The notes under the pieces: model-generated
What the model saw: only the letters and a program-made list of their open reading frames with translations
Told to the model about the DNA's origin: nothing
Databases searched by the model: none
Virus record (IMG/VR): IMGVR_UViG_3300032038_000061
Coordinates: 7,259-71,258 of that record
Direction: 5' to 3' (one strand)
Length of the DNA: 64,000 nt
DNA from: a virus
Taxonomy: Duplodnaviria > Caudoviricetes
Position numbers and translations under genes: made by a program
Shown: positions 6,420 through 50,311 of the stretch, in pieces
Position numbering within the stretch: the stretch's first letter is position 1
Layout: each line of letters opens with the position of its first letter

Positions 6420-8279
6420 TTATAGTGAGCCTACACGTGATCCTTTGTTAACCAAGCTAGCCATGTCAGATAGTAATGTACTACCGATATTATACATCAT
6501 ATTCTTAGGATTAACTGCAGAAGCAGCTAATGCCAAACGAGTTATTGTACGCATGCTTCCATTAACACGGTATTTATCGACACCTGACAATTGAGCAATA
6601 TAATCAAACATCGGTTTATTGTTTAACATTACTGATGGTTGATCCATTGGTGACGTACCTAAAGCATGTTGTAAGTCTGCGACTGTTATTGATATATCCA
6701 TTGATAATGGATATCCATGAACAGATAAATCTTTACCTTGCGGATTCTTGTTAACAGTTACTGAAGTTACCATTCCTAAACGAGTCCCCCATATACCTGG
6801 GATATGACATTGAATAACAGGTGGATATGTATATGCTCCAGCACTGTTCTTTGACATCTGTGGTAATGCCATTCCTAATATAAAGAATAAAGGAACAAGT
6901 TCATCTGTTAAATATGAATAAGGATCACCACCAGATGCAACCAGATGAACTGTTAAAGTCAATGATTGAGTTGATGAATGACTTTTGAATATATCTGGAT
7001 ATATTGTATGGTCACCCGTAAATGAACGTGACATTGCAGATGCAATCGCTGCGGTAAATTTACCTTCTCCTGATTGAAGAGTTGTTAATACTTCTTCAGC
7101 AGCCACTCTAGATTCGGTTGCTAAATCGATCATTTTATCATTAATCATTCCTGATGATGCTGATGCTATAAATGCAATTTCACTACCTACTTCATTACCT
7201 TTACTGATGACATTGCTGTATATCTGTGATGCTCCAACTTCGTTTGTATAAGATTCGCTTAAACCATTCGCATCAACCATAAATGATACATATTGAGAAT
7301 TATCACCGTTTGCAGTATCTAATGCGGTTACTGTACCTAAATTCGATACAGGAGTGATATATCTGTAATTTGCCCATACATCACTTTCTTTATTTACTTT
7401 TGCATCCATCCCGATTGGATAATAATAATCACCGACACGAACACATGCACGTTGTAATCCCAACATAATTACAGCTGTATTTATCATCATCTTGACATTG
7501 TTGATATAACTATGCCAATTTGATTCAAACTCATAAAAGTTTTTATTAACAGACATAGATGTTAGGAATGCTGCAGATATTCCTGCTAAACCACCTAAAG
7601 CACCAGATAATTTATCTCCGATTGTTGTAGCTTCTGAATATTTTGTTATATCAGCAACTGTCATATCATCGTCAATCTCAGATGTTAAATAGGATAATGA
7701 TTTTCCTAATCTTAATATACCATCACCGGTTTCTGTAACATCTTCTGATAAAGATTTTTCAAATGTATCTTTATTTGCCATTGAATGAATTTCATTTGCT
7801 ATATTCTGATTATTGGATGATACATTGTTTCCATCTGAGTCGAATATATCATATTTAGATAAAGCAGCTCCATAATAATAAGCTTCATATATCAAGTTTG
7901 TTAAACTCGAAACACCTCCCATGAATCTTGCTTTACCAACAACAAAATTTGCGACTTGAGCTTCGCGTAATATCTTAGTTAAATAGAAATCACCAACAGG
8001 ACCTGGGTTAGTTCCGTTTGAACTTATAAGCCTCATATCACAAGCATGTGTTAATTGAGGAGGTGCACCAAATAAACGAGGCGAATATAGATTCAATAAC
8101 GGGGAAGCTTGTTCTGCAGAAACAAAATCTTTGTTATTTGTTTGAGCACCAACACCCGGAAGAATGTATGCTGTTTGTAATCTGTCATATCCATCAACCG
8201 CTTCATTTGCCATGTCTTGTAAAGTATCTTGAGTATCAGCATTATCAAGTTCTTCATCTATAACTGCCATAAATATCAC
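6420..8279 (-). CDS. Probable baseplate/tail-tube junction protein (T4 gp48/gp54-like fold)
   Basis: C-terminal PPVIQCHIPGIWGTRLGMVTSVTVNK...GYPLSMDISITVADL resembles tube-initiator proteins; true start probably ATG at 8270. Confidence 0.4.
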   Translation of the reverse strand: MIFMAVIDEELDNADTQDTLQDMANEAVDGYDRLQTAYILPGVGAQTNNKDFVSAEQASPLLNLYSPRLFGAPPQLTHACDMRLISSNGTNPGPVGDFYLTKILREAQVANFVVGKARFMGGVSSLTNLIYEAYYYGAALSKYDIFDSDGNNVSSNNQNIANEIHSMANKDTFEKSLSEDVTETGDGILRLGKSLSYLTSEIDDDMTVADITKYSEATTIGDKLSGALGGLAGISAAFLTSMSVNKNFYEFESNWHSYINNVKMMINTAVIMLGLQRACVRVGDYYYPIGMDAKVNKESDVWANYRYITPVSNLGTVTALDTANGDNSQYVSFMVDANGLSESYTNEVGASQIYSNVISKGNEVGSEIAFIASASSGMINDKMIDLATESRVAAEEVLTTLQSGEGKFTAAIASAMSRSFTGDHTIYPDIFKSHSSTQSLTLTVHLVASGGDPYSYLTDELVPLFFILGMALPQMSKNSAGAYTYPPVIQCHIPGIWGTRLGMVTSVTVNKNPQGKDLSVHGYPLSMDISITVADLQHALGTSPMDQPSVMLNNKPMFDYIAQLSGVDKYRVNGSMRTITRLALAASAVNPKNMMYNIGSTLLSDMASLVNKGSRVGSL

Positions 8280-8328: not shown

Positions 8329-9102
8329 ATGATAATACAAGCAATTGATAAAATTAATGTCGAGAACGATTCATTCGTTAAATTATTACTACATAACTCG
8401 GTGATGAATGATTATGTGTTTGAAAGATCATTCTTCATAATACATCTTATTCCTGATGATATAACAGATGTTCTGTATCGTAGATTGTACGAAGATTGTT
8501 ATTACAGAATGATTGATAAATCTGGATATAAAAAAGGTGTTTTTTATCTGAACATGACTGTTTCAGAAGCAATCGGTTTCATCAGAAGAGTGACACCGCC
8601 TATATTACAGGATAAAATCCCTGAAGCAATAAGGACTGTTGAAAGTATCTACGATCTCCTTAGATTGTTTTTAATGGAAGATAACAAAGACGGTCAACAT
8701 CAATACTATCTGTCTGAATTCAAAAGGTATATGTATTTAAATGAATATCCAACACAAACAAATTACAACACTGATAGAACATCTCTTCTGAGAATGAATA
8801 ATAAAGATGGAATAACAACTGATGTTGAAATATATTCTCCTTTGGTTGACGGATTCTTCTCAGGAAATATTGATAATGATAAATCATTTGATGTGCAGAT
8901 AATGTTTCATTTTAAAAACAAAAACCAAATTAAAGAAGTTTGTGAAAACGTATTACAACAATTCAAAACAAACAAAGTTCTCAATGTATTTTCAGATAAT
9001 GAGAATGGTTATTATTTGGAGATGTATTTTGAAAATTTTAATGCATCAATATATAAATGGATTATGGATTTGATAAAATTTAATTATAAAGATATAATAT
9101 AA
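8329..9102 (+). CDS. Hypothetical protein (257 aa)
   Basis: ORF with GGAGG SD. Confidence 0.75.
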   Translation: MIIQAIDKINVENDSFVKLLLHNSVMNDYVFERSFFIIHLIPDDITDVLYRRLYEDCYYRMIDKSGYKKGVFYLNMTVSEAIGFIRRVTPPILQDKIPEAIRTVESIYDLLRLFLMEDNKDGQHQYYLSEFKRYMYLNEYPTQTNYNTDRTSLLRMNNKDGITTDVEIYSPLVDGFFSGNIDNDKSFDVQIMFHFKNKNQIKEVCENVLQQFKTNKVLNVFSDNENGYYLEMYFENFNASIYKWIMDLIKFNYKDII

Positions 9103-9109
9103 TGATTAT

Positions 9110-9127
9110 GAGGGGCATATGCCCCTC
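9110..9127 (+). terminator. Palindrome GAGGGGCATATGCCCCTC followed by a T-tract
   Basis: Directly after the 9102 stop; T-rich tail. Confidence 0.8.
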
Positions 9128-9303: not shown

Positions 9304-10539
9304 ATGATTGGAACAGGATTACAGATAGCAGTAGCTCTTGGAACAACTTTGGTCGGTGTTCTCACAGCAATTGTAGGAAGCAATAATAACAATCAACAGA
9401 ATATGGATGCTTATAATATGAATCAGTATTATCGTCCATCACAGTATGAAACACCGATAGTTCCACAGAAACCTGCATATGAACCATTCAAATATGAACC
9501 AATAACAGTAAGACGTCTTCAGGCTGAACCAATACCAAAGTATTGGGATATTCCAGTTTCAGAAGAATCAAAACACAGATGGGAGATTGGTCCAGATGAT
9601 GGTTTATCAGCATCACGTAGAAACCTTATACGTAGCAGACTTCAGAGATCAGTAGCTCCACAGCAGCCAGTTCAACCCACAATAGTTCCGTTAACACCAC
9701 CACAACCAGTTCAGCAGACAACACAGTATGGCTATGGTTATAGTGAACCATCAATACCCACACCTCAAGCTGTAAATGTTCAGCCACAGGCTCCTGTACA
9801 GGTTGATTCAAGAAGATTTTCTCACACAGTAAATCCAACTTATACAACATTTGAAATGCACAATAGACCTTTCCAGGCTCCTATGATGCAACAGGCAATA
9901 CAGAATCCTTATAATTTATATGCAAATCCAATGACAAATAATATGACACAGTATCAGTCAAGAAGACAGATGTTTGAATCTGGTAATGTAAACGGTTCTT
10001 TCCAAACACCAAACTTCAATAACAACAATATTCCTTCACCATATCCATATGGCTATGGTGAAACAAACAACATGGGTTATCCTTCTCAGAACATGAATTA
10101 TCAGCAGAATCAAATGAATTATAAGATATTCAATAATAATGCTGATGAAAGTAGGCTTAATAATTGGACGATGATGGATAGTGGTCCGGTTGGATATAAT
10201 GCATATAATAGTGGTTTCCCGGGGAGCTCAAGTCCTCCAAATCCAAATATACAAATGCATCGATTCAATCAACCTTCACCCCAACCCATGTATCAACAAC
10301 AACCAATGCCTCAACAATCACAATATGGTCAACAATTGGACCAACCTATGGGAGATATACTAAAATGGAAAGACCTAGTAGATTCTCCCGTCTCGACAAA
10401 GTTCTCAACGTCACAAAAGCCATCGTCAACGGACTCAATGCAATATCAAGGATCGTGGCATAAACCGGGATATGTCAATGAACTTGGAGAAGTACCGATG
10501 TTTGTGTTAGATGATGGAACCCCTTTATTTAGTAAATAA
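9304..10539 (+). CDS. Q/P/N/Y/M-rich low-complexity (prion-like) protein with an N-terminal hydrophobic helix
   Basis: N-terminus MIGTGLQIAVALGTTLVGVLTAIVGS; the rest is dominated by Q,P,N,S,Y,G,M; contains ASRR, DSRR, QSRR and YGYG; AAGGAG SD. Confidence 0.8.
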   Translation: MIGTGLQIAVALGTTLVGVLTAIVGSNNNNQQNMDAYNMNQYYRPSQYETPIVPQKPAYEPFKYEPITVRRLQAEPIPKYWDIPVSEESKHRWEIGPDDGLSASRRNLIRSRLQRSVAPQQPVQPTIVPLTPPQPVQQTTQYGYGYSEPSIPTPQAVNVQPQAPVQVDSRRFSHTVNPTYTTFEMHNRPFQAPMMQQAIQNPYNLYANPMTNNMTQYQSRRQMFESGNVNGSFQTPNFNNNNIPSPYPYGYGETNNMGYPSQNMNYQQNQMNYKIFNNNADESRLNNWTMMDSGPVGYNAYNSGFPGSSSPPNPNIQMHRFNQPSPQPMYQQQPMPQQSQYGQQLDQPMGDILKWKDLVDSPVSTKFSTSQKPSSTDSMQYQGSWHKPGYVNELGEVPMFVLDDGTPLFSK

Positions 10540-10562
10540 TTAAATCATGGAGGTGAACCGAT

Positions 10563-10601
10563 ATGTATTTATGCCGTAGATATATGTCACATTATCCTTA
10601 G
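10563..10601 (+). CDS. Candidate 12-aa upstream peptide MYLCRRYMSHYP
   Basis: GGAGGTG SD at 10549-10555 with ATG 7 nt later; overlaps a TCACATTATCC/GGATTAATGTGA stem. Confidence 0.35.
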   Translation: MYLCRRYMSHYP

Positions 10602-10661
10602 CTGAAATATCGTGTTTTGGATTAATGTGATAAAATATATTATTTAAAGGAGGAACTCATA

Positions 10662-11180
10662 ATGAGTTTAACGAAACAACAAATGGACGCCATCTTTGAT
10701 GGTGCGGATGTAGCCCTTACAGCAACATCAGCAACTGCAAATGCAGTAAACAACGGAATCCAAGAGGTCAGAAGAGCCATGGATTCAAGAGGAAATGTGT
10801 CAAACTATCCTCAACAGAATTATCCGTACAACAACGGTTATCAGTATCAGCCACCTGTGACATATGGTTATGGTTATGCCGATCCAACCCCACAGCCTCA
10901 GCCAATGATGTACAACTACAACTACAATTATCAGCCTCAGTTGTATTCTCAGCCACAGGCATATGGTTATGGTGGATACCAACAGCAACAGCAGTATCCA
11001 AACACATATTACCCAACAATGTCACAGGGTAATGGTTATCAACAACCATTGGTTCCACAATCAACAATGGGTTATCAAGGATTTACCAACACAGGTTATG
11101 GTGTTGCTTCAACACCTCAAACAACCTATGGTTTCAATGGTAAACCAAATGGACCTGTTGGAAGTTCTTGGGGATATTAA
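10662..11180 (+). CDS. Q/Y/G/P/N-rich prion-like protein (172 aa)
   Basis: AAAGGAGG SD; after about residue 45 almost all Q,Y,G,P,N,T,S; DSRG and repeated GYG. Confidence 0.85.
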   Translation: MSLTKQQMDAIFDGADVALTATSATANAVNNGIQEVRRAMDSRGNVSNYPQQNYPYNNGYQYQPPVTYGYGYADPTPQPQPMMYNYNYNYQPQLYSQPQAYGYGGYQQQQQYPNTYYPTMSQGNGYQQPLVPQSTMGYQGFTNTGYGVASTPQTTYGFNGKPNGPVGSSWGY

Positions 11181-11196
11181 TAAAGGAGGATTAATA

Positions 11197-11544
11197 ATGA
11201 TATTTCAGACATTCTGTAACAGAACTGCTTCAAAGGAACGTATCGATGTATCCAGCATCAATCCTGTTCCAGACAGATACAAAAAGGCAGTTGATTCAAT
11301 AATCAACATAATGAAGGACAAAACTGAAATCTTCAATGTTATCGAGGTTCCGTTTGTTGAGGTTGCTTTCAATGACCAGGATTTTGAACAGATACTTGAA
11401 GACAAACTTACAGACGGAGAAATTCCTGATGAAATCATTTGCAAACTTTCAGCAGGAATTTACAACAAGGCAATCACACAGCTTACAGATTCAGAACAGG
11501 CAATAATAAAAGTTCTGTCAACATACATCTGTATACAAAATTAA
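11197..11544 (+). CDS. Hypothetical protein (115 aa)
   Basis: AAAGGAGG SD before ATG 11197; the track's extension to 10963 overlaps the previous gene. Confidence 0.8.
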   Translation: MIFQTFCNRTASKERIDVSSINPVPDRYKKAVDSIINIMKDKTEIFNVIEVPFVEVAFNDQDFEQILEDKLTDGEIPDEIICKLSAGIYNKAITQLTDSEQAIIKVLSTYICIQN

Positions 11545-11566
11545 AAAAATTCAGGAGGAATTCAAA

Positions 11567-12214
11567 ATGAACACAATCATCAACAAGGCAATGATTCAGC
11601 CTATCCCAACAGACCGTTACAGAATATCATCGACGGAAGTAATCAAATACCTTCAGGACCAGCTTGGTTTCGTGGTTGATTACGACTTCACAAGATGGAC
11701 CGGAATATCACCTGATAATTCCTACATCAGACTCAGAATCGTCATCGCTCATGATGACATCGTTGCGAGAAACACATCTCGTGATTATGTTGATAAGGTG
11801 CTTGAAGAGAATGCTGCAGGCATACGTTTCAAGGATAATGTAATCAACACTCTCAAACCTTTCATGTATCCTCTTAACATGCAGGATATCAGAAACAAAC
11901 CTGAACAGATGGCTAGATTTGAAGCTCTTGGTATTGTTGGTCCAAGACTTGATGAAATAATCAGGTATTCAAAACTCACATATCACAGAGAGACAAATTC
12001 ATTCGGGCTCTATCTCAGAGCTGAAAGAATAATAGCAGACATGCTCACAGACCCCAACACAGGAGTTATCAATGGAGACATGGAAATTCTTGGCGTGTTT
12101 GGTACAACCCCTGAGACATTCAGATGGGAAGTTGCTGTAACAAGAAATCGTTCTGGTGCTTCTGCAACAGGACATACTGGCATTTCACTTGACCAGATAT
12201 TTGCTACTATCTGA
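11567..12214 (+). CDS. Hypothetical protein (215 aa)
   Basis: AGGAGG SD; C-ending codon bias like other apparently highly expressed genes. Confidence 0.8.
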   Translation: MNTIINKAMIQPIPTDRYRISSTEVIKYLQDQLGFVVDYDFTRWTGISPDNSYIRLRIVIAHDDIVARNTSRDYVDKVLEENAAGIRFKDNVINTLKPFMYPLNMQDIRNKPEQMARFEALGIVGPRLDEIIRYSKLTYHRETNSFGLYLRAERIIADMLTDPNTGVINGDMEILGVFGTTPETFRWEVAVTRNRSGASATGHTGISLDQIFATI

Positions 12215-12227
12215 AAATGATTGAGAT

Positions 12228-12253
12228 ATTTCGGGGGATTTGTCCCCCGAAAT
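12228..12253 (+). terminator. Hairpin ATTTCGGGGGA-TTTG-TCCCCCGAAAT
   Basis: Inverted repeat after the 12214 stop. Confidence 0.7.
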
Positions 12254-12282
12254 TATCATCATTTTTTAAAGGAGATGATTAA

Positions 12283-13389
12283 ATGAAAATAGCAGATCTT
12301 AATATAATTGAAATCAGTGAGATGATAGATCATCTTGATGAATGTATAGATGGACACATTGAGAAAAATCCGATTGTTGTTGGTGGTATTGCGGGGAGTG
12401 GCATAGAGAAACTTGTATTGAATGCTGTTATAGACAAATACGATTTTTCAAAAGTATTGGTTGTTACAGGTTGTCAAGACTATATCGGAATGGTTAAAAA
12501 ACCTTTGGAGAATTTCATGTTCTATGGAGATTTATTTAATCTAGATATGATAGATCCAATTACTCCCTTCAATCCATTCGTTGCAAAAGTGTTTAATCCA
12601 AAACCAGAATATGTTAATACTGTGAATAAAACACTCTTAAGAAATTATGAGATGATAATAATCTTCAAAGCACATTTGATAGATTGTGAATATTTGAACA
12701 TGATAACTCGAGAATTCTATGGGCAAATCATTCATGTAATTGATCCATTTGATATAAACGGAGATGATTATTTACATGCTTTGATGACTTATGATATTCC
12801 TGTTGTTGTAGATTCGTTAGAGAAGATTCGACCGATAGTTGCAATGGCAAGGAATGTATGGGGTGTTGAAACAAGAAGTATTGAAAAGAAAGTTCGAGGT
12901 TCTGTTACAGAAACAAATCGAATCAACAATCGTTCAGTTGGTAAATTGGATGATAAACAATATGTGACAACAGATTTACAATTAGCTCAAATGGTAACAC
13001 AACGACAACTTGATTCTCCCTTCAGAAAAGGACAAAAGTTTTTGGTTGTCAATAATGGTAAAATAGAACCATTGACATACGACACCTCACATCATTATTC
13101 ATTGGCAAAAAATAGTATGTTAATAATGGAGGATGCTAAATCAACTCCATATATGAAACTCAGGATATATTCGTCGAAAATTATCTATGCTACGGATATA
13201 ACTTATTCAGATCCACCTGAAAGAGGCAAGCTTGGAGTATTTCCTGCGAATATAATGTCATTAAAACAATCTTCATATCACAGATATAATCATACTGTGT
13301 TAATATTAACAGAACCTTTAACCCAAAGACAGAAATATTCAATACTCAAGAATAGCATCAATGTTTCTGTCATAAATAAAATGAAATAA
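12283..13389 (+). CDS. Degenerate (probably ATPase-dead) Dda/RecD2-like SF1B helicase homolog
   Basis: GGIAGSGIEK at Walker A position (no catalytic Lys); MIIIFKAHLID at Walker B position (no DE); IDPFD resembles motif III; C-terminal KYSILKNS resembles the lYtaitRa motif. Confidence 0.55.
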   Translation: MKIADLNIIEISEMIDHLDECIDGHIEKNPIVVGGIAGSGIEKLVLNAVIDKYDFSKVLVVTGCQDYIGMVKKPLENFMFYGDLFNLDMIDPITPFNPFVAKVFNPKPEYVNTVNKTLLRNYEMIIIFKAHLIDCEYLNMITREFYGQIIHVIDPFDINGDDYLHALMTYDIPVVVDSLEKIRPIVAMARNVWGVETRSIEKKVRGSVTETNRINNRSVGKLDDKQYVTTDLQLAQMVTQRQLDSPFRKGQKFLVVNNGKIEPLTYDTSHHYSLAKNSMLIMEDAKSTPYMKLRIYSSKIIYATDITYSDPPERGKLGVFPANIMSLKQSSYHRYNHTVLILTEPLTQRQKYSILKNSINVSVINKMK

Positions 13390-13402
13390 GCGAGGTTTTG
13401 TT

Positions 13403-14083
13403 ATGTTTGGATTAAAGTTGATAAAACGTGACGAAGAAGATGCCAAAGAAGTACGTGTTTTCAAAAAAGCTGTGCATAATCTACATGATCATTGTACAGA
13501 TCTTATCAAATGGATAATAGATGGATTTAATGTTGATCCTGATTCAATTCTTCATTTGATATCAGATATGGAAGTAATGGGAACATTAATTGACATATAC
13601 TTCAATAACAAATTTTCGTCACCAACAAATTCAATGAGATTGTTTCAAACACATGATGAATGTCGTAAATATGTAAACGAAATCGTTGAGATTATTAATG
13701 GTATTATTACCGCGAATGAACTGGTTAGAACAGCTTATGAACATAGAGAAGATGGATCAATAGACATTGATCAAATTAACGATGAATATGAAAAACTTAT
13801 TGATTCTGCTAAAGATGATTTGAATCGTAGCGTTAACTTATTGATCGCTGAAATTAAACTGATCATTGCTGTTATTAGACCAGATTTAGTTCGTATTGAT
13901 ACAGGAGAAAATCTTATAGAGACTTATTATCGTAATAAAGCTTTGAAAGATAATAGCGATAAGATGCATACTATGTTTAAGGTTGAATATAAGGTACAAC
14001 CTGATGAATATAGAAGATATCTCAACAAAGAGAAAACCAAGGAGGAAAAGAAAAATGATCAACGAAGAAAAAATGGAAATTGA
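13403..14083 (+). CDS. Hypothetical alpha-helical protein (226 aa) overlapping the chaperonin start
   Basis: ORF track; GAGG SD. Confidence 0.75.
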   Translation: MFGLKLIKRDEEDAKEVRVFKKAVHNLHDHCTDLIKWIIDGFNVDPDSILHLISDMEVMGTLIDIYFNNKFSSPTNSMRLFQTHDECRKYVNEIVEIINGIITANELVRTAYEHREDGSIDIDQINDEYEKLIDSAKDDLNRSVNLLIAEIKLIIAVIRPDLVRIDTGENLIETYYRNKALKDNSDKMHTMFKVEYKVQPDEYRRYLNKEKTKEEKKNDQRRKNGN

Positions 14084-15803
14084 GATGGCATCAATGGGAT
14101 ATGGAAGAGTGTATGATTATACACAATACTCCCATGACAATCACGTCAATGTGATTCCTGAACAATCTTTCAGAAGACTTGTTCATGATACATTTAACGT
14201 GATAACAGAAACCCTCAGAGAAACTTATGGACCATATGGTTCAACTGTTATGATATCTGATCAGAATCAGACAATAACAACCAAAGATGGATACAATGTG
14301 TTTGAATCAATTGGTTTCAATCAAGTTTACAAACAGAAAGTTTATCTGGCAATACAACAGATAATCGAACGTGTCAACAGAAATGTTGGTGATGGAACAA
14401 CTTCTTGTATATTATTGGCAGAGAAGATTTTCAATAATGTCAATCAGTTGATGACAACACCAGAAGTGAAACGACAGATATTGAAAGAGCTGTCTGAAAT
14501 AGAGTCAGATTTACAGGATTCAAGTATACTTGAACTCCATAAAGAAACTAAGATTATCATGACAGATATAACGAAAACTGCGTTGATGAATCTCATACGT
14601 CTTGCAAGTAACTATGACGATGAACTTGTTAATGTATTATATGAAGCATTTTCTCCTGAATATGATAATGAGGGATTCATTGTATCAGTCCGTAATGTAG
14701 TTGCAGAAAGAGAAATCACAATGGATTCAAATTCCAATGTTCAATACAAAATCGATTATCTTCCCGGTGATTATCGAGTTCGTGTAAACATGGATGTTGA
14801 ATTCGGATTAGCTCTGTCACAACCTACAAAGATAAAGACAATAATATACGATCATGCATTCTCTTCATCAGATTGGATAAATTTCATGAAGAGTTATGAT
14901 GGTGAAAATGTTTTGATACTTGCGAGAACCTTCACAAAGAGTTTCATGGATAATGAATATGTGAGATTCTTGAAAGAGTATATGTTGAAGAAACTTCCTG
15001 TTCCACTTTATCTTGCTGAAATCAAAGGAGAATTTGTACAGAATGAGATTCATGACCTTGCAGCATTACTTGGAATCAAAGCACGTGACATGAATGATTT
15101 GGTTGTTAATTTTGATGAATTACCAATAACAACAGTTCAAGTATATAAAGGAAACTGCATGTGTTTCTATGATGTAACATCACCGACTGGATATGTTGAT
15201 AAACTTCGTAAGGAAATGAATAAAGATTTATCTGGATCATATATTACTCGTAAGGAATACCTCTCCAGAATTAAAGCTCTTTCATTGACTAATAAGGATA
15301 CACTTGTTACTGCAAAATGTGGTACTTCATTAGAATCCAAAATGATAATGGATAAGATAGATGATTGTACCGCTATTGTAAATTCTGCAATTGAAAATGG
15401 AATTGTTCCAAATATGTTAGTATATGCATATTTCAGAATGGAATGTATTCGAACTGCGGATGATTCATCAGAACTAATGAAATCAATCGTAACAGAAATC
15501 CAACATGCAATAACTGGATTATTCTCTGATTTATGGGATTCTAAATATGGTAAGGATTGTAAAGATGGAATGGATGATGAAATCGAAAGAATATATGATT
15601 TCAACACATATTTCAAATCATATGATTTGATTCATAACGAATTAACCAATGTTGAGGATCTTCCCACTTCTTCTGAATATGATCTTGAAGTTGTTGTTGC
15701 AGCTTTGTCAATCGTCAAATATTTATTGACCAGCAGAGCATTCATCTTTGATGCTCATCTATTACCACCAATCGGTGATGTTGGTCATTATGAACATTAT
15801 TGA
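14055..15803 (+). CDS. groEL: Phage GroEL-like (group I) chaperonin
   Basis: TYGPYGS, ITTKDG, VGDGTTS, DKIDDC..SAIENGIVP motifs; GGAGG at 14041 supports the start at 14055. Confidence 0.9.
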   Translation: MINEEKMEIEMASMGYGRVYDYTQYSHDNHVNVIPEQSFRRLVHDTFNVITETLRETYGPYGSTVMISDQNQTITTKDGYNVFESIGFNQVYKQKVYLAIQQIIERVNRNVGDGTTSCILLAEKIFNNVNQLMTTPEVKRQILKELSEIESDLQDSSILELHKETKIIMTDITKTALMNLIRLASNYDDELVNVLYEAFSPEYDNEGFIVSVRNVVAEREITMDSNSNVQYKIDYLPGDYRVRVNMDVEFGLALSQPTKIKTIIYDHAFSSSDWINFMKSYDGENVLILARTFTKSFMDNEYVRFLKEYMLKKLPVPLYLAEIKGEFVQNEIHDLAALLGIKARDMNDLVVNFDELPITTVQVYKGNCMCFYDVTSPTGYVDKLRKEMNKDLSGSYITRKEYLSRIKALSLTNKDTLVTAKCGTSLESKMIMDKIDDCTAIVNSAIENGIVPNMLVYAYFRMECIRTADDSSELMKSIVTEIQHAITGLFSDLWDSKYGKDCKDGMDDEIERIYDFNTYFKSYDLIHNELTNVEDLPTSSEYDLEVVVAALSIVKYLLTSRAFIFDAHLLPPIGDVGHYEHY

Positions 15804-15814
15804 TATTATCATTG

Positions 15815-15836
15815 GAGAGGGCCAATTGGCCCTCTC
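15815..15836 (+). terminator. Perfect palindrome GAGAGGGCCAATTGGCCCTCTC
   Basis: After the chaperonin stop. Confidence 0.65.
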
Positions 15837-15902
15837 TCACATAAACAATTTTCATCCAACAACAAATAAGTACGATTATAAAATTACGAAAGGTGATGGA
15901 CG

Positions 15903-17405
15903 ATGAAAACACTGAGAAACAATATCTATCAGGATATTGCAAGTATTTTATGTTCAAAAAACAATGAGTTGAAAACAACACAGAACGTTGTATTATTCTC
16001 ACGAACCATATCGACATATCCATCTAATAAATCAATATATTGTCTTGTCGCTAATAGGGTAATTTCATTCATTGAAAAGAATGTAATGAATATGAATCTT
16101 ATGATAGAGATTATGAAAGATGAAGGTGAGGATGAAGAAATCGTTCAGACTGTTGAATTCTTAATGAATAATCCTACAATAAAAACTCGTGCTGAATGTA
16201 CGAAATTGTGTTTGCTGTTGACGGATTATGTAAAATGGTCAAAACTCTTAAAAGTCAAAAACTCATTCATCAAAGCATTAGATGTCATTGATGAAGATGA
16301 AGATGACGTTACAAGCATGAGGGATAAGATTAATACCTTATACAAAATATCAACCGAAATAGTTACTGCATATAATACTGTCAACATTACAGAGATATCT
16401 CACACATTTGACTCAAATGATGTTGATGCAATGAAAACTGTTATTGCAGAAGCTAAAGATGCAAGAGCTCCTGATAAATGTATCATTACTGGTATTCGAG
16501 GTTTGAACAGCTTACTATCACCTGGATATCTTTCAGGATGTGTTTATGTATTTGCTGCATTACCTGGAAATTACAAATCAGGCATTTTGTTAAAATCACA
16601 TGTTGATACATGTAAATTTAATGAACACATCAAGAATACTACAAATGGGAAAACACCAATATCGATGTATATATCGATGGAGAATTCAATGGCACAAACA
16701 ATTCGCAGACTATGGAGCTTATTATTCCCTACTGCGGATTTATCCATGTTCAGTGTTGACGAAATAACCGAAATGATCAATAATGAATTGACTTCCAAAG
16801 GATTACGTTCAATTCTTCTGTATTATGGATATAGAGAAAAATCTACTAAGGATTTGGAAAATATCATTCGTTCATTTAATGATGAAGAAAATGAAGTTGT
16901 TGCAGTATATTTGGATTACATTAAACGAATCCGTCCCGGTCGTACTGATGCAGCGGTTACTTCTTCAGAAAAAGCAGAATTACATGCAATAATGAATGAA
17001 TTGAAATTGATATCAGTAGAATTCAATATTCCTGTTGTGACGGGTCATCAATTAAACAGAGAAGCCGCACGTCAAGTTGATGACATTGTCAAAAATGGAG
17101 GTTTCAATAAAACTGAACAAGCTCTTGGAAGAGCCAATATTTCCTCTGCATGGGAAGTTATGGAAGTTGCTGACTTTTTAGCATTAATGAATATTGAAAA
17201 TAATGGTGAAACAAAATCATTGATGATTAAAGCAGCTAAACAAAGAGATTTGGATAGTAAGACTGATAGTGCCATTACAGCAATACGTCACCCATTCTTA
17301 TCAACACAATCATTTGCGTTGAAAGATGATATAATGGAAAATGTATCTGTGTCAATACCGATATATTTTACGACACAACACACAAACTTCATGGCAAATA
17401 TATAA
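15903..17405 (+). CDS. dnaB: DnaB-like replicative helicase
   Basis: Walker A variant ALPGNYKS, YISMEN, VYLDYIKRI, PVVTGHQLNR, EVADF. Confidence 0.85.
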   Translation: MKTLRNNIYQDIASILCSKNNELKTTQNVVLFSRTISTYPSNKSIYCLVANRVISFIEKNVMNMNLMIEIMKDEGEDEEIVQTVEFLMNNPTIKTRAECTKLCLLLTDYVKWSKLLKVKNSFIKALDVIDEDEDDVTSMRDKINTLYKISTEIVTAYNTVNITEISHTFDSNDVDAMKTVIAEAKDARAPDKCIITGIRGLNSLLSPGYLSGCVYVFAALPGNYKSGILLKSHVDTCKFNEHIKNTTNGKTPISMYISMENSMAQTIRRLWSLLFPTADLSMFSVDEITEMINNELTSKGLRSILLYYGYREKSTKDLENIIRSFNDEENEVVAVYLDYIKRIRPGRTDAAVTSSEKAELHAIMNELKLISVEFNIPVVTGHQLNREAARQVDDIVKNGGFNKTEQALGRANISSAWEVMEVADFLALMNIENNGETKSLMIKAAKQRDLDSKTDSAITAIRHPFLSTQSFALKDDIMENVSVSIPIYFTTQHTNFMANI

Positions 17406-17419
17406 AAAATATATTTGAG

Positions 17420-17431
17420 ACATATATAATT
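17420..17431 (+). promoter_or_regulatory. Candidate phage promoter motif ACATATATAATT
   Basis: Identical 12-mer at 29304 and 50244, each upstream of a + strand operon and followed by a short hairpin. Confidence 0.5.
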
Positions 17432-17493
17432 AATATGAGAATGGTACAACTTTGTACTTTTCTAAATTTGATTGCTCAAAGGAGGAAAATAAT

Positions 17494-18132
17494 ATGAGCA
17501 GTGTTTTATTAACACAATATCAATCAAGGATACTTGGACCAACTGAACCGGTTGATTACTCGTCACTGGTTATGCAGTCCTATCCACCACAGGCTATTCA
17601 GCAGGAACCTTTCATAGGTTTCAAGGTACTCGTTACCGATATGATGGCTTACTCCGCAGGAAATCCTGGAGACAGAATGAGATATCTTGAAGCTAATTTA
17701 GGATTTCTCAGAGGTAAAGGTGTCATCATCAGAGAGACATCATTGACGAAACCCGATGGATACTGGATACTGACATTACCAGTACCAAGGTCTCAACTGA
17801 CAACGGCATTGAATAATCTTCTTGATGTTTTGGCAACAATCGAACAATACTTCAGTATTATCCGAGATGGGTTGTTTGAAGTAAACGTTTCAGGAAGATG
17901 TCATTATGCAGAAACCGAAAGAGTGTTGTCATCACTCACAATTCCTCAGAGATATATGCAACTTCTTGTATCACCTGACAATACACCGTACAAGATGGGA
18001 CATGTACAGCGTATCAATGACACCTTCATGGTACTTCGTACACGTTGGAACTTGAGGAATTCAATAACACCCGCGTCAATATTTGAAGACTTAACTGTCA
18101 TTGCACAGTTAACAGCTTCGATATATCACTAA
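17494..18132 (+). CDS. Hypothetical protein (212 aa)
   Basis: AAAGGAGG SD supports ATG 17494. Confidence 0.8.
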   Translation: MSSVLLTQYQSRILGPTEPVDYSSLVMQSYPPQAIQQEPFIGFKVLVTDMMAYSAGNPGDRMRYLEANLGFLRGKGVIIRETSLTKPDGYWILTLPVPRSQLTTALNNLLDVLATIEQYFSIIRDGLFEVNVSGRCHYAETERVLSSLTIPQRYMQLLVSPDNTPYKMGHVQRINDTFMVLRTRWNLRNSITPASIFEDLTVIAQLTASIYH

Positions 18133-18155
18133 TTAATTTTAAGGAGGACGATTAT

Positions 18156-18908
18156 ATGTATAATCCAGATTACCCAAACACAGAAAATGCTGGTTTCATC
18201 CAGCATACCTATCAGGCACAACAGCAGAACAATGACATGTTCTATGTAAATGGACAGGCTGTTTACAACCCATTTGCTCCAACAGGATATCAGAGTGATT
18301 CCAGAAGAGCAATCAACCCCGTAAATCCTTACGGGGTTTATCCTAATCCGAATCAGCCAATGAACGGATACAATCCACAGAATCAGGCAATACCTGAATC
18401 ACAGGTACAGCCGTTCTCATCATACCCGCCATCGACACCACTTGGAAATGTTCCTAATATGGGTGGATTAAATTCACTGGTGGACTCCAGAAGAAACTTC
18501 GACAATACACTTCCACAGAACAATCCCTGGATAACACAGAATCCCGCTCCAACATATACACAGCCTCAGAATAACTTTAACAACAATGGATATGGTGGAA
18601 ACTTTAACAACGGATATCCATCAACTTTTGGAAATGTTGAATCTAATACTCTTGCATTGTATTCTTCAGGAAGTATGGGTTACAATCGCAAGGTTGGTGC
18701 TTGGGATAATTGTTATGTTCAGAACAGAGCAATTCCAATGCCTGTAATTGATTGGAGACAACAGCAGCAGAATCAGCAGAATCAGCAGAATCAGCAGGTT
18801 TATTCATATCAACCGAATATGCAGCCTCAGTTCCCACCACAGTATCAGAATACTCAGGCTAACTGGGCTGAAATAGCTGTAAAGAATTGGAGTTCGAACA
18901 AACTCTGA
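18156..18908 (+). CDS. Q/N/P/Y-rich prion-like protein (250 aa)
   Basis: AAGGAGG SD; low complexity throughout; two DSRR motifs; QQN tandem repeat. Confidence 0.85.
   Translation: MYNPDYPNTENAGFIQHTYQAQQQNNDMFYVNGQAVYNPFAPTGYQSDSRRAINPVNPYGVYPNPNQPMNGYNPQNQAIPESQVQPFSSYPPSTPLGNVPNMGGLNSLVDSRRNFDNTLPQNNPWITQNPAPTYTQPQNNFNNNGYGGNFNNGYPSTFGNVESNTLALYSSGSMGYNRKVGAWDNCYVQNRAIPMPVIDWRQQQQNQQNQQNQQVYSYQPNMQPQFPPQYQNTQANWAEIAVKNWSSNKL
18765..18797 (+). repeat. 9-bp tandem repeat (CAGCAGAAT)x3 + CAGCAG, encoding QQN repeats
   Basis: Read directly from the sequence. Confidence 0.9.
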
Positions 18909-18924: not shown

Positions 18925-19770
18925 GTGGTATTTATGGCAGAATTATTCGAGAAACAATTTAGATCTCGATTGAATTCATTACCTTTGGATTTCAAATGCG
19001 AACTCGGTGAAATACCTCTTCAAAAAGGTATGAGAGCAACATCTCGAAAGAATAAGGCAATCGAATTATTGAACAAATACTCGATTCCATTCATTGAATT
19101 AGGAACTGGAACAAACCGTTTCATTATAAGATATCAAGGTTATGCTCTCAAAATCGCTCTTGATAGAGAGGGAATAGCCGATAACAAACAGGAGTTTGCA
19201 ATATGTGAAGCGTTAATGCCAAATGTTGCATATGCCCATGAGATAAGCAGTGGAGGTCACCTTCTGGTGGCCTCTTATGCTCCTGCTTTTACATCTTACA
19301 ACGAAATGTGTTTTCATGCGACAGAAATAAAACGTATATTAGGTGAATGGAGTCAACGTTTTCTACTAGGTGATGTTGGTTTAACTCGAACTAACTATGC
19401 TAACTGGGGTTTATCACCCAATGGGAAACCGGTTTGCATTGATTATGCTTATATCTTTCCTGCGGGATTAGATTTGTTCAAATGTATATGTGGTAATAAG
19501 ACAATGACTTTTACTGATTATACATTCTCTACTTACAAATGTACTAAATGTGGTAAACATTATGAGGATAGAGAATTAAGAGCAAAAATATCTCAATCAG
19601 AAAGATTAAGATTGTTCAACAATGTTAAAGGTATCGAAATGCATAATGAATATGAAATGCATCCTGTCGATCCAAAATATATTAAACCAGAAACTAATCC
19701 AGATTATCCAGACCCATATACAACATCGATAAATGTTGCTGAACAACTCATGGGTATTGATTTCGGATGA
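18925..19770 (+). CDS. Protein-kinase-fold enzyme with a C-terminal Zn ribbon
   Basis: Gly loop ELGTGTNR, YALKIA (catalytic Lys), NKQEF (alphaC Glu), LGDVGLTRTNYAN (catalytic D...N), CIDYAY (DFG-like); CICG...CTKCG. Confidence 0.75.
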   Translation: MVFMAELFEKQFRSRLNSLPLDFKCELGEIPLQKGMRATSRKNKAIELLNKYSIPFIELGTGTNRFIIRYQGYALKIALDREGIADNKQEFAICEALMPNVAYAHEISSGGHLLVASYAPAFTSYNEMCFHATEIKRILGEWSQRFLLGDVGLTRTNYANWGLSPNGKPVCIDYAYIFPAGLDLFKCICGNKTMTFTDYTFSTYKCTKCGKHYEDRELRAKISQSERLRLFNNVKGIEMHNEYEMHPVDPKYIKPETNPDYPDPYTTSINVAEQLMGIDFG

Positions 19771-29222: not shown

Positions 29223-29378
29223 ACTATTTTTTCTCCTTTGTATATTTATATTTTTATTGTGTCATGAGAATAATGTGTATTTAAAAATATTTTTATTTTT
29301 AAAACATATATAATTCTTTTGAACAGTACCACGATGTGTTACTGTAAATTACATTTTATGAAAGGAAGTTGATTTCAA

Positions 29379-30119: not shown

Positions 30120-31196
30120 ATGAATAACATGATTATTGGTGTTGGAAACACCGGAACACAAATCGTAAAACTTGCGGCAACTTCTAAGCTTCTCGAGGAT
30201 GTCAAAATGTATGCAATTGATTCAGTTGCTGCATCTGTTGATATCGACATGATTAATAGAATCACTGTTATACCAATCATCAGTGACTCTAAGAATGGTT
30301 CAGGTCGTTCAAGAGAAAGAGGAGCTGCAATGTATGAGTTTCATGAGGATAATGGCGAATTCGTTGATATGTATGATGACGCTGTTAACTCAAAAGCTCC
30401 TGTACTCGTTATAACATCTGCCGCAGGTGGTACAGGAAGTGGTTCAGTTGTTCCACTTTGTAAATCCCTTATAGCAGAGAACGTTCAGGTTATTCCTATA
30501 ATAATCTGCCCTAATGAAGCTGATCCCGAAGCTTTTCATCTCAACACAAATGACTTGTTCATTGAACTTGATGAGATTGGAATAACAACCTACGCAGTAT
30601 TCCAGAATACCAGAAGATATTCTGATTACGCATTAATCAATCAGGATGTTGTTAACATGATTGAAATCGTGTTTGGTAGAAGATATGATGAAACTGAACT
30701 CGATACAATTGATGATTCTGATTTGGATGTAATACTCAATACACCCGGTAGATTCATTGCAGTTTCTGCAGAAGCAAAGGATGCACAGACTCTTTCAAAA
30801 GAACTTGCAAGAAAGGTATTCTCAGGATATCAACCTGCATGGACAGATGAAGAGGCTTCTAACAATACACTTCTTCTTGCATGTGGTCTCAAAAGCATCT
30901 TTGCTAAAGATGATTTCGACGCCGTGTTTGAAGAAATTGATAAGAGACTTGATGCTGGAAATATGTATGATAAATACAAGAACATTGTTAACGATAATAA
31001 TGATGGAAAATCTTCAGCAACTCTTATTGTCGCAGGTCTCCCCAGAGCTGCTGTCAAAGTCATCAGCTCTGAATACAAGGAAGCTGAAAGTCTTGGTTCT
31101 GGATTGAATAAATCCAAACGTCCAAGTTTTATGAATCGTAAAAAGAAAACGATTACAGATGATAATGGCAAACCCAAATTCAATTGGCAGAAATAA
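30120..31196 (+). CDS. phuZ: Tubulin/FtsZ-family GTPase (PhuZ/TubZ-like)
   Basis: IIGVGNTG, GSGRSRERG, SAAGGTGSGS (tubulin signature variant), IDDSDL T7 loop, basic disordered C-terminal tail. Confidence 0.85.
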   Translation: MNNMIIGVGNTGTQIVKLAATSKLLEDVKMYAIDSVAASVDIDMINRITVIPIISDSKNGSGRSRERGAAMYEFHEDNGEFVDMYDDAVNSKAPVLVITSAAGGTGSGSVVPLCKSLIAENVQVIPIIICPNEADPEAFHLNTNDLFIELDEIGITTYAVFQNTRRYSDYALINQDVVNMIEIVFGRRYDETELDTIDDSDLDVILNTPGRFIAVSAEAKDAQTLSKELARKVFSGYQPAWTDEEASNNTLLLACGLKSIFAKDDFDAVFEEIDKRLDAGNMYDKYKNIVNDNNDGKSSATLIVAGLPRAAVKVISSEYKEAESLGSGLNKSKRPSFMNRKKKTITDDNGKPKFNWQK

Positions 31197-50170: not shown

Positions 50171-50311
50171 ATTTTTGTTTCTCCTTTACTTGGAATTTTG
50201 TGCATATGCACATAAGTTATATATGTATTTATTACTTCACGATACATATATAATTTATATGCACATTGAAAAATAACTGATGTGTTAGTTTAATGAAAGG
50301 GTTGATGAATT

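Follow-up and report, generated by a model that had tools for sequence, protein, structure and literature searches.

What do three proteins made largely of glutamine, asparagine, proline, tyrosine, glycine and serine do for a phage? The question is raised by a stretch of 64,000 nucleotides (hereafter the window), 64 kb of the 71-kb viral contig IMGVR_UViG_3300032038_000061 in IMG/VR, which stems from an uncultivated phage of the cattle rumen and encodes three such proteins, here called A, B and C. A reading made from the letters alone (hereafter the sequence-only reading) had taken them for a family of prion-like proteins with shared SRR and GYG motifs that might scaffold a phage condensate. 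The account we favour, with a confidence that stops somewhat short of even, is that all three are disordered adaptors built around short motifs, that one of them is anchored in the membrane, and that a common partner reads the dibasic motif they share. The three genes are the following.

9304..10539, + strand: gene A, 411 aa, open reading frame (ORF) with Shine-Dalgarno (SD) sequence
10662..11180, + strand: gene B, 172 aa, ORF with SD sequence
18156..18908, + strand: gene C, 250 aa, ORF with SD sequence

All three ORFs are real at these coordinates, and each is preceded by a strong SD sequence (AAGGAG or AAGGAGG) 7–9 nt 5' of the ATG. The claimed dominance of Q, N, P, Y, G and S was borne out, with fractions of 0.53 in A, 0.645 in B and 0.62 in C compared with 0.42 in the next-richest ORF of the window (43 ORFs of at least 150 aa). 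Charged residues account for 0.13 of A, 0.06 of B and 0.08 of C, and proline for 11–13% of the three proteins. The motifs quoted earlier are all present: ASRRN, VDSRRF and QSRRQ in A, MDSRG in B, SDSRRA and VDSRRN in C, two copies of YGYG each in A and B, and a Trp close to the C-terminus of all three. A, B and C, as well as most of their neighbours, matched nothing in Pfam, PHROGs or NCBIfam.

Seven related viral contigs of 35–295 kb were recruited with a profile of C-type proteins. The relatives include G001, which is complete (294.5 kb), G003 (164 kb) and G004 (156 kb); G001 (loci L007/L008) and L051 make up a sister clade. Gene order is the same in seven of seven related contigs, with an A-like gene, a B-like gene, a 115–124-aa gene, a 215-aa gene and a 365–390-aa gene, further on usually a gene of ~220 aa, and then the chaperonin, the DnaB helicase, a 210-aa gene, C and a kinase-like gene; it recurs on metagenome contigs of other sources. 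Exactly three ORFs exceed a Q/N/P/Y/G/S fraction of 0.48 in each of G004, G003 and G001, and these are the orthologues of A, B and C. The term family holds for composition and motif, but not for homology, as pairwise BLASTP revealed none among the three proteins (A-C, E=1.6; B-C, E=0.98; A-B, E=0.006 in a single comparison). These comparisons indicate that each of the three proteins forms a conserved family of its own with a fixed place in the gene order, and that there is no single homologous family.

What the three proteins have in common is a short dibasic motif, found in the window at six sites.

9613..9621, + strand: SRR motif 1 of A, S104-R106, ASRRN
9808..9816, + strand: SRR motif 2 of A, S169-R171, DSRRF
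9958..9966, + strand: SRR motif 3 of A, S219-R221, QSRRQ
10785..10793, + strand: RR-motif site of B, S42-R43-G44 in the window; SRR or PRR in at least 90% of the family
18300..18308, + strand: SRR motif 1 of C, S49-R51, invariant in the family alignment
18486..18494, + strand: SRR motif 2 of C, S111-R113

The three copies of SRR in A compare with 0.05 expected from its own composition, and none of 50,000 shuffles reached three. C carries two copies against 0.013 expected, a number reached in 2 of 50,000 shuffles. Five of the six SRR tripeptides in the window (~19,800 aa of ORFs) lie within A and C, and in the genomes scanned SRR[N/F/Y] occurred outside A, B and C in one 84-aa antisense ORF of G003 only. 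Both SRR and GYG-type motifs proved to be conserved in homologues together with synteny. Of 129 C proteins, 102 have exactly two RR dipeptides, in nearly all cases within [D/E]-S-R-R-N, and position −1 of the RR in the C family is Ser in ~90% of cases and Thr in most remaining instances of the window-type clade. In B the motif follows the N-terminal segment, and in A it is present in two or three copies; the orthologues of A in L002, L003 and L004 each hold two SRR[FNY].

The sister clade uses a different form of the motif in place of SRR. Its B proteins carry EPRRADY or QPRRNDG, its C proteins DVRRPDG plus DARRADA, or GARRPDG plus EARRADA, and its A proteins VPRRPDY in G001 and no RR in L051. 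The form common to B, C and A of one of the two genomes is x-R-R-x-D, and PRRxD is present in 7 of the 23 members of the B family. Because the core Arg-Arg is kept while its flanks changed together in non-homologous proteins, we infer one shared reader. The simplest account of the switch would be a shared reader with changed specificity, or different host targets in each clade.

Two other readings of the paired arginines were considered and rejected. A twin-arginine signal would be N-terminal (S/T-R-R-x-F-L-K) and followed by a hydrophobic h-region. The motifs here are internal (residues 42–221), no hydrophobic stretch follows them (19-residue Kyte-Doolittle mean, KD19, ≤0.65) and the sister clade uses x-R-R-x-D, which speaks against a twin-arginine translocation (Tat) signal. 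A prohead-protease site was dismissed because the known T4 and phiKZ-type prohead proteases cut after Glu, not at Arg-Arg. The motif is also absent from recognisable virion proteins.

Conservation in C is confined to short islands. Its homologues numbered 45 in a word search and 108 clusters at 50% identity in an exhaustive profile search; nearly all are 200–275 aa long, and no credible fusion to another domain was seen. In 129 C proteins the islands are NPDYP, SRRN, VQPFS-YPP, a second SRRN, NPW, ALY..FDK..W-N-YT, P-I-W and W..IA..NW, and in the window protein they read NPDYP, VQPFSSYPP, NPW, ALY..FDK..WDN.YT, INW and NW..IA..NW, with two DSRR[A/N]. Between the islands, the linkers vary in sequence but retain their composition (mean Q/N/P/Y/G/S 0.56). 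At the level of the alignment, this pattern is the signature of a disordered protein working through short linear motifs. Disorder was also predicted by structural modelling: the AlphaFold2 model of C (23-sequence alignment) reached a predicted local distance difference test score (pLDDT) of 52 and a predicted template modelling score (pTM) of 0.18, with helix 237–245 as its sole confident element, and the ESM Atlas models gave a pLDDT of 0.41 for C and 0.49 for B. ESM Atlas look-alikes for B and C yielded nothing usable.

18864..18890, + strand: C-terminal Trp-flanked helix of C, W237-W245; AlphaFold2 block with pLDDT 70–72, W237 invariant

The B family (23 members) occupies its syntenic position in all loci. 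Its layout comprises an N-terminal helix-like segment (FDGA), the RR-motif site, YGYGY, GFTNxGYG and a C-terminal SSWGY, the counterpart of which in the window-type clade is GGAWG. Among the 23 members F12, R43, Y68, G71 and Y72 are invariant and G-Y-x-G-F-x-x-P-x-Y-G is nearly so. The alignment column after the invariant R43 is R in at least 90% of the family; window B has E-V-R-R-A five residues upstream of its SRG site.

10863..10877, + strand: YGYGY of B, Y68-Y72; Y68, G71 and Y72 invariant, G69 and Y70 in at least 90%

Protein A is the fastest-evolving of the three. Its orthologues, identified by position in seven loci, are 228–505 aa long at 18–29% identity, and a word-based protein search with A returned only A itself. 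The layout of A comprises a predicted N-terminal anchor, a long P/Q/N/Y-rich disordered region, which holds the three SRR motifs, and a conserved C-terminal motif.

9304..9381, + strand: hydrophobic N-terminal helix of A, residues 1–26, predicted membrane anchor; Kyte-Doolittle 19-residue mean 2.1
10486..10536, + strand: C-terminal motif of A, G-x-V-x-M-F..DDG-x-P-L-F, common to A of L002 and L004

The N-terminus reaches a KD19 of 1.65–2.46 in seven of seven orthologues, compared with ≤0.65 in the rest of the protein, and the C-terminal motif reads G-V-V-A-M-F..DDG-x-P-L-F in closer relatives. E. coli ZipA and p16.7 of phage phi29 are membrane-anchored tethers with P/Q-rich linkers. A resembles them in its N-terminal anchor, its long flexible P/Q-rich region and its conserved C-terminal element, and it adjoins replication genes in a tubulin-encoding phage. 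Unlike in ZipA and p16.7, a globular C-terminal domain is lacking in A, and it has no homology to either. At window position 10035, inside A, contigs of two bovine-gut metagenomes show an in-frame insertion polymorphism of 3 nt (TCA), by which the length of the gene varies with the reading frame kept.

On the reading we favour, A, B and C would be strings of short linear motifs set between Q/N/P/Y/G/S-rich linkers, each displaying one to three copies of [D/E]-S-R-R-[N/F/Y] that one folded partner reads. This partner could be encoded by the host or by the phage, in which case its first candidates are two further products of the C operon, the kinase-like protein and the 212-aa protein. The N-terminal helix would tether A to the membrane, and during infection the trio would recruit or cross-link the partner, along with the binders of the family-specific aromatic motifs, to build a multivalent assembly attached to the membrane. 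Such an assembly is proposed because A appears to be anchored and each protein carries several motifs. Specific docking is favoured over generic stickiness because the exact short motifs are invariant.

Several points weigh against this proposal. The motif switch is a single evolutionary event in one sister clade, and the concerted change is statistically not strong; further independent switches were sought in the C lineages SRRT, SRRD and ARRAD, whose contigs are too short for A and B. The RR motif appears to be dispensable in single proteins, because it is absent from A of L005 and A of L051 and altered to SRG at the canonical site of window B. In addition, Arg beside many Tyr could act as a generic 'sticker' without a folded reader, and the expression class of the three genes (see below) is drawn solely from promoter-like motifs and the analogy with phage AR9.

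Among the rival explanations a condensate scaffold survives best, followed by kinase substrates and then by virion proteins. We consider the first of these unlikely. It holds that self-association through Tyr, Arg, Gln and Asn would produce a membraneless replication or assembly factory, tethered by A and tuned by the kinase and the chaperonin, which would replace the protein shell in phages where chimallin was not found. Low charge, an aromatic-rich composition and predicted disorder are in line with this, as the FUS-like combination of disorder and low charge is seen in low model pLDDT and a charged fraction of 0.06–0.13. Further support comes from the even spacing of aromatic residues in C (see below), from the composition conserved across the C family, from the presence of exactly three such proteins per genome, and from a promoter-like element common to the tubulin and C operons. 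The lack of a recognisable chimallin, noted in the sequence-only reading for the window, extends to its relatives: the profile PF25677, which does detect phiKZ gp54 as a control, gave no match in G000–G004, including relatives 100% and 96% complete, of a clade that carries tubulin. There is precedent in phages as well, since condensates form in vitro through the N/G-rich tail of ChmC, a jumbo-phage protein (10.1101/2023.09.22.559000), and SPO1 Gp27 phase-separates (PMC13401047).

Other features of the three proteins fit a condensate less well. The even spacing of Tyr reported by the sequence-only reading holds in C only, where aromatic residues are more evenly spaced than in shuffled sequences (z=-1.7; 2% of shuffles as even, p ~0.02), whereas spacing is random in A (z=+0.1) and not significantly even in the low-complexity part of B (z=-0.8). 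The label 'prion-like' fits A, B and C weakly. Their best 80 residues hold 30, 26 and 29 Q/N, respectively, which is borderline given the classical threshold of at least 30 per 80, but this density is not conserved: the G004 orthologues reach 23, 17 and 26, and the G001 orthologues fall outside the top ORFs. A proline content of 11–13% would, moreover, disfavour amyloid. That such proteins are rare in phage proteomes is true in a relative sense only, as a PLAAC survey counted 5,040 prion-like proteins among 370,617 phage proteins (PMC5694896). Arg residues are few (3–16), no nucleic-acid-binding domain is present in A, B or C, and the invariance of exact motifs (DSRRN, VQPFSSYPP, YGYGY) points to specific recognition. 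Composition and predicted disorder as such would suit a sticker-spacer protein.

Comparison with known condensate-forming proteins leads to a similar picture. Like FUS, hnRNPA1 and Sup35, the three proteins are Q/N/Y/G/S-rich, low in charge and predicted to be disordered, with scattered aromatics and a few Arg that could pair with Tyr. In contrast to these, A, B and C are small, stand-alone proteins without a folded or RNA-binding domain; they contain 11–13% proline, their 26–30 Q/N per 80 residues are not conserved in orthologues, and they are conserved in exact short motifs and not in composition only. ChmC of Chimalliviridae and SPO1 Gp27 are non-virion proteins reported to phase-separate, and their condensates, which gather viral machinery, are driven by disordered N/G-rich or modular regions (10.1101/2023.09.22.559000; PMC13401047). 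Both have folded nucleic-acid-binding or oligomerising domains, whereas none is predicted in A, B or C, and there is no sequence relation between them and the trio, whose clade showed no chimallin in the PF25677 search.

A second explanation, which we rate below the condensate, starts from the gene next to C.

18925..19770, + strand: protein-kinase-like protein with a C-terminal CxC..CxxC zinc ribbon, 16 nt after C

The adjacent kinase named in the sequence-only reading is supported by modelling. Its AlphaFold2 model (pLDDT 76, pTM 0.74) indicates a protein-kinase fold, for which the top PDB matches in Foldseek were RIO2, Aurora A, PRPK/Bud32 and ERK2 (probability 0.99–1.0 over 150–180 columns, TM-score only ~0.33), and many annotated phage and giant-virus kinases were matched in BFVD. 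The GTGTNR motif and the residues K76, E90, D150, N160 and D173 are invariant in eight orthologues, which leaves all catalytic residues intact. Profile searches assigned the protein to no named family and gave no Pfam kinase match; at E≤1 Pfam, with the CotH family included, returned two weak matches to the zinc-finger region only, and membership of the CotH family was rejected on these grounds. Residues 38–42 of the kinase-like protein hold a conserved T-S-R-[K/R] with an invariant R41 in a predicted helix, which reads TSRRD in L005, L007 and L008.

As substrates of this kinase, A, B and C would be phosphorylated at the Ser of SRR, or at other Ser, Thr or Tyr after docking of the enzyme on RR, and phosphorylation would switch their binding or assembly, comparable to the patterning of the coat proteins CotG and CotB by CotH. 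The kinase fold with its invariant catalytic residues, the position of the gene directly 3' of C in every locus seen and the Ser at position −1 in ~90% of C-family RR motifs are consistent with this, and the CotH-CotG/CotB module provides a precedent (PMC7821199). There, too, an atypical kinase gene adjoins the gene of a disordered protein with Ser beside basic residues, and the proposed role is the patterning of a supramolecular assembly. Unlike CotG and CotB, however, the trio lacks long Ser/Lys/Arg repeats, with Ser-Arg-Arg at only one to three sites in each protein, the kinase-like protein is not recognisably CotH, and the setting is a phage and not a spore. Adjacency of genes is by itself weak evidence. 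Every RR motif retained in the sister clade has Pro, Ala or Val in place of the Ser, while the kinase-like gene is kept with its catalytic residues intact. A phospho-switch at the Ser is weakened because this clade lost the Ser yet kept the gene; docking of the kinase on RR, or phosphorylation elsewhere in the proteins, may nevertheless occur.

Whether the three proteins belong to the virion was approached through their transcriptional context. C lies in an operon with a preceding 212-aa gene and the kinase-like gene, in that order 212-aa gene, C and kinase-like gene.

17494..18132, + strand: first gene of the operon, 212 aa; SD AAAGGAGG 5' of ATG 17494
17420..17431, + strand: promoter-like 12-mer ACATATATAATT, 74 nt before ATG 17494
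10632..10650, + strand: AR9-early-type promoter-like element AAAATATATTAT-6N-G, 12 nt before the ATG of B
9110..9127, + strand: terminator-like hairpin between gene 8329-9102 and the transcription unit of A

Orthologues of the 212-aa gene are 35–69% identical and always lie directly before C. The ORF listed for this gene (226 aa) starts with TTG at 17452, and the true start is most likely the ATG at 17494, as orthologues are 210–215 aa long. An identical ACATATATAATT is found at 29304-29315, 75 nt before the tubulin operon, and at 50244-50255, 68 nt before 50312, and the element is kept before the orthologous operon in seven of seven loci; it looks like a second promoter class. A further copy is located at 50226 on the − strand. 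The element before B, in turn, closely matches the early consensus of AR9, AAATATATATTAT-(6N)-G (PMC5312081). AR9-early-like sites are intergenic at 10632, 20287, 42510(-), 47052(-), 58114(-), 59272(-), 61071 and 62900, and they precede B, an RNA-polymerase subunit gene, a topoisomerase gene and five other genes. Judged from these sequences, the promoter of the virion RNA polymerase seems to be conserved across very distant phages with multisubunit RNA polymerases (msRNAP). Since relatives do not share the AR9-early-like element before B, the B promoter is given little weight for early expression. The recognisable virion genes of the window are preceded by neither ACATATATAATT nor the AR9-early-like element.

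In an RNA library from the rumen, contigs with 100% identity to the window span parts of C and of the 215-aa gene at 11567-12214, which is a weak hint of transcription given possible DNA carry-over. RNA run X9 covered only 7% of the sampled words, and its uncovered stretches are uninformative. Taken together, promoter-like motifs and the analogy with AR9 weakly suggest that the three proteins do not belong to the virion and are produced together with the tubulin and replication functions.

A role in the virion, as internal head, ejection or scaffold-like proteins, is rated lower still than that of kinase substrates. Disorder would then help the proteins to pack with DNA or to traverse the tail, and RR would signal packaging or processing. 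Many ejection and internal proteins are disordered, which counts for this explanation. In addition, a structural gene at 6420-8279 (phrog_20401) lies just upstream of A on the other strand, and the RNA-library contigs over C could, weakly, mean high expression. The three genes, however, share a block with those of the chaperonin and the DnaB helicase, and C is in an operon with the kinase-like gene. The promoter-like elements are common to tubulin, topoisomerase and RNA-polymerase genes and not to recognisable virion genes, A has a membrane-anchor-like helix, and the specificity of prohead proteases does not fit Arg-Arg. A, B and C are thus probably not virion proteins. We give the least credence to a membrane-tethered replication or transcription condensate, a droplet-type counterpart of the chimallin phage nucleus, in which A would be the anchor, B and C scaffold or clients, the kinase a regulator, and [D/E]SRRN a valence-setting sticker read by a phage protein.

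The genome of the phage is of jumbo size, as the 71-kb contig is rated 26% complete by CheckV. Bovine gut metagenomes from four or more studies contain near-identical DNA. The window encodes split RNA-polymerase beta-type subunits, a terminase, topoisomerase II, an SbcC-like protein, a PhuZ-like tubulin (30120-31196; phrog_4733, E=5e-6), a Cpn60-type chaperonin and a divergent DnaB helicase. By this helicase, the nearest cultured relatives are AR9/PBS1, BpSp and large Staphylococcus phages (26–30% identity); msRNAP phages without chimallin include PBS1, PALS_2 and phiR1-37 (10.1101/2023.02.24.529968). Neither C nor the kinase-like gene was found in AR9 or phiKZ, and the gene order around the AR9 helicase was not shared. 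A, C and the kinase-like protein remained unmatched in 50,697 deposited phage records (tblastn with the low-complexity filter on), and a megablast search with the region found nothing. The C profile had no relative among GTDB representative genome contigs, hence no clue to the host.

Regarding the neighbouring genes, the chaperonin of the sequence-only reading is real, but its 'degenerate helicase' at 12283-13389 is unsupported by Pfam, PHROGs, NCBIfam and PDB sequences; the product is a conserved protein of 365–390 aa. A conserved 115-aa gene (11197-11544) is hidden within the longer listed ORF 10963-11544. The DnaB-like helicase of G004 and G003 matches the window helicase as two pieces of ~415 aa and 73–75 aa, which lie ~1.0–1.2 kb apart (L002:6595-9241, L003:6801-9237), whereas the window copy has no insertion. 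An intron, an intein or a homing-endonuclease insertion may account for the split in G004 and G003.

Disordered proteins acting through short linear motifs are familiar from eukaryotic viruses, whereas hardly any have been described in phages. In a 2026 review of jumbo-phage biology the words 'disordered', 'condensate' and 'phase separation' are absent. Here, a large clade of uncultivated jumbo phages from the ruminant gut keeps a fixed set of three proteins with one motif, which provides a handle for finding the reader of [D/E]SRRN. Should this reader be a host protein, the trio would be a phage example of motif mimicry. Self-assembly of the trio, if it occurs, could account for the way in which jumbo phages that encode a tubulin but lack a recognisable chimallin organise the infected cell.

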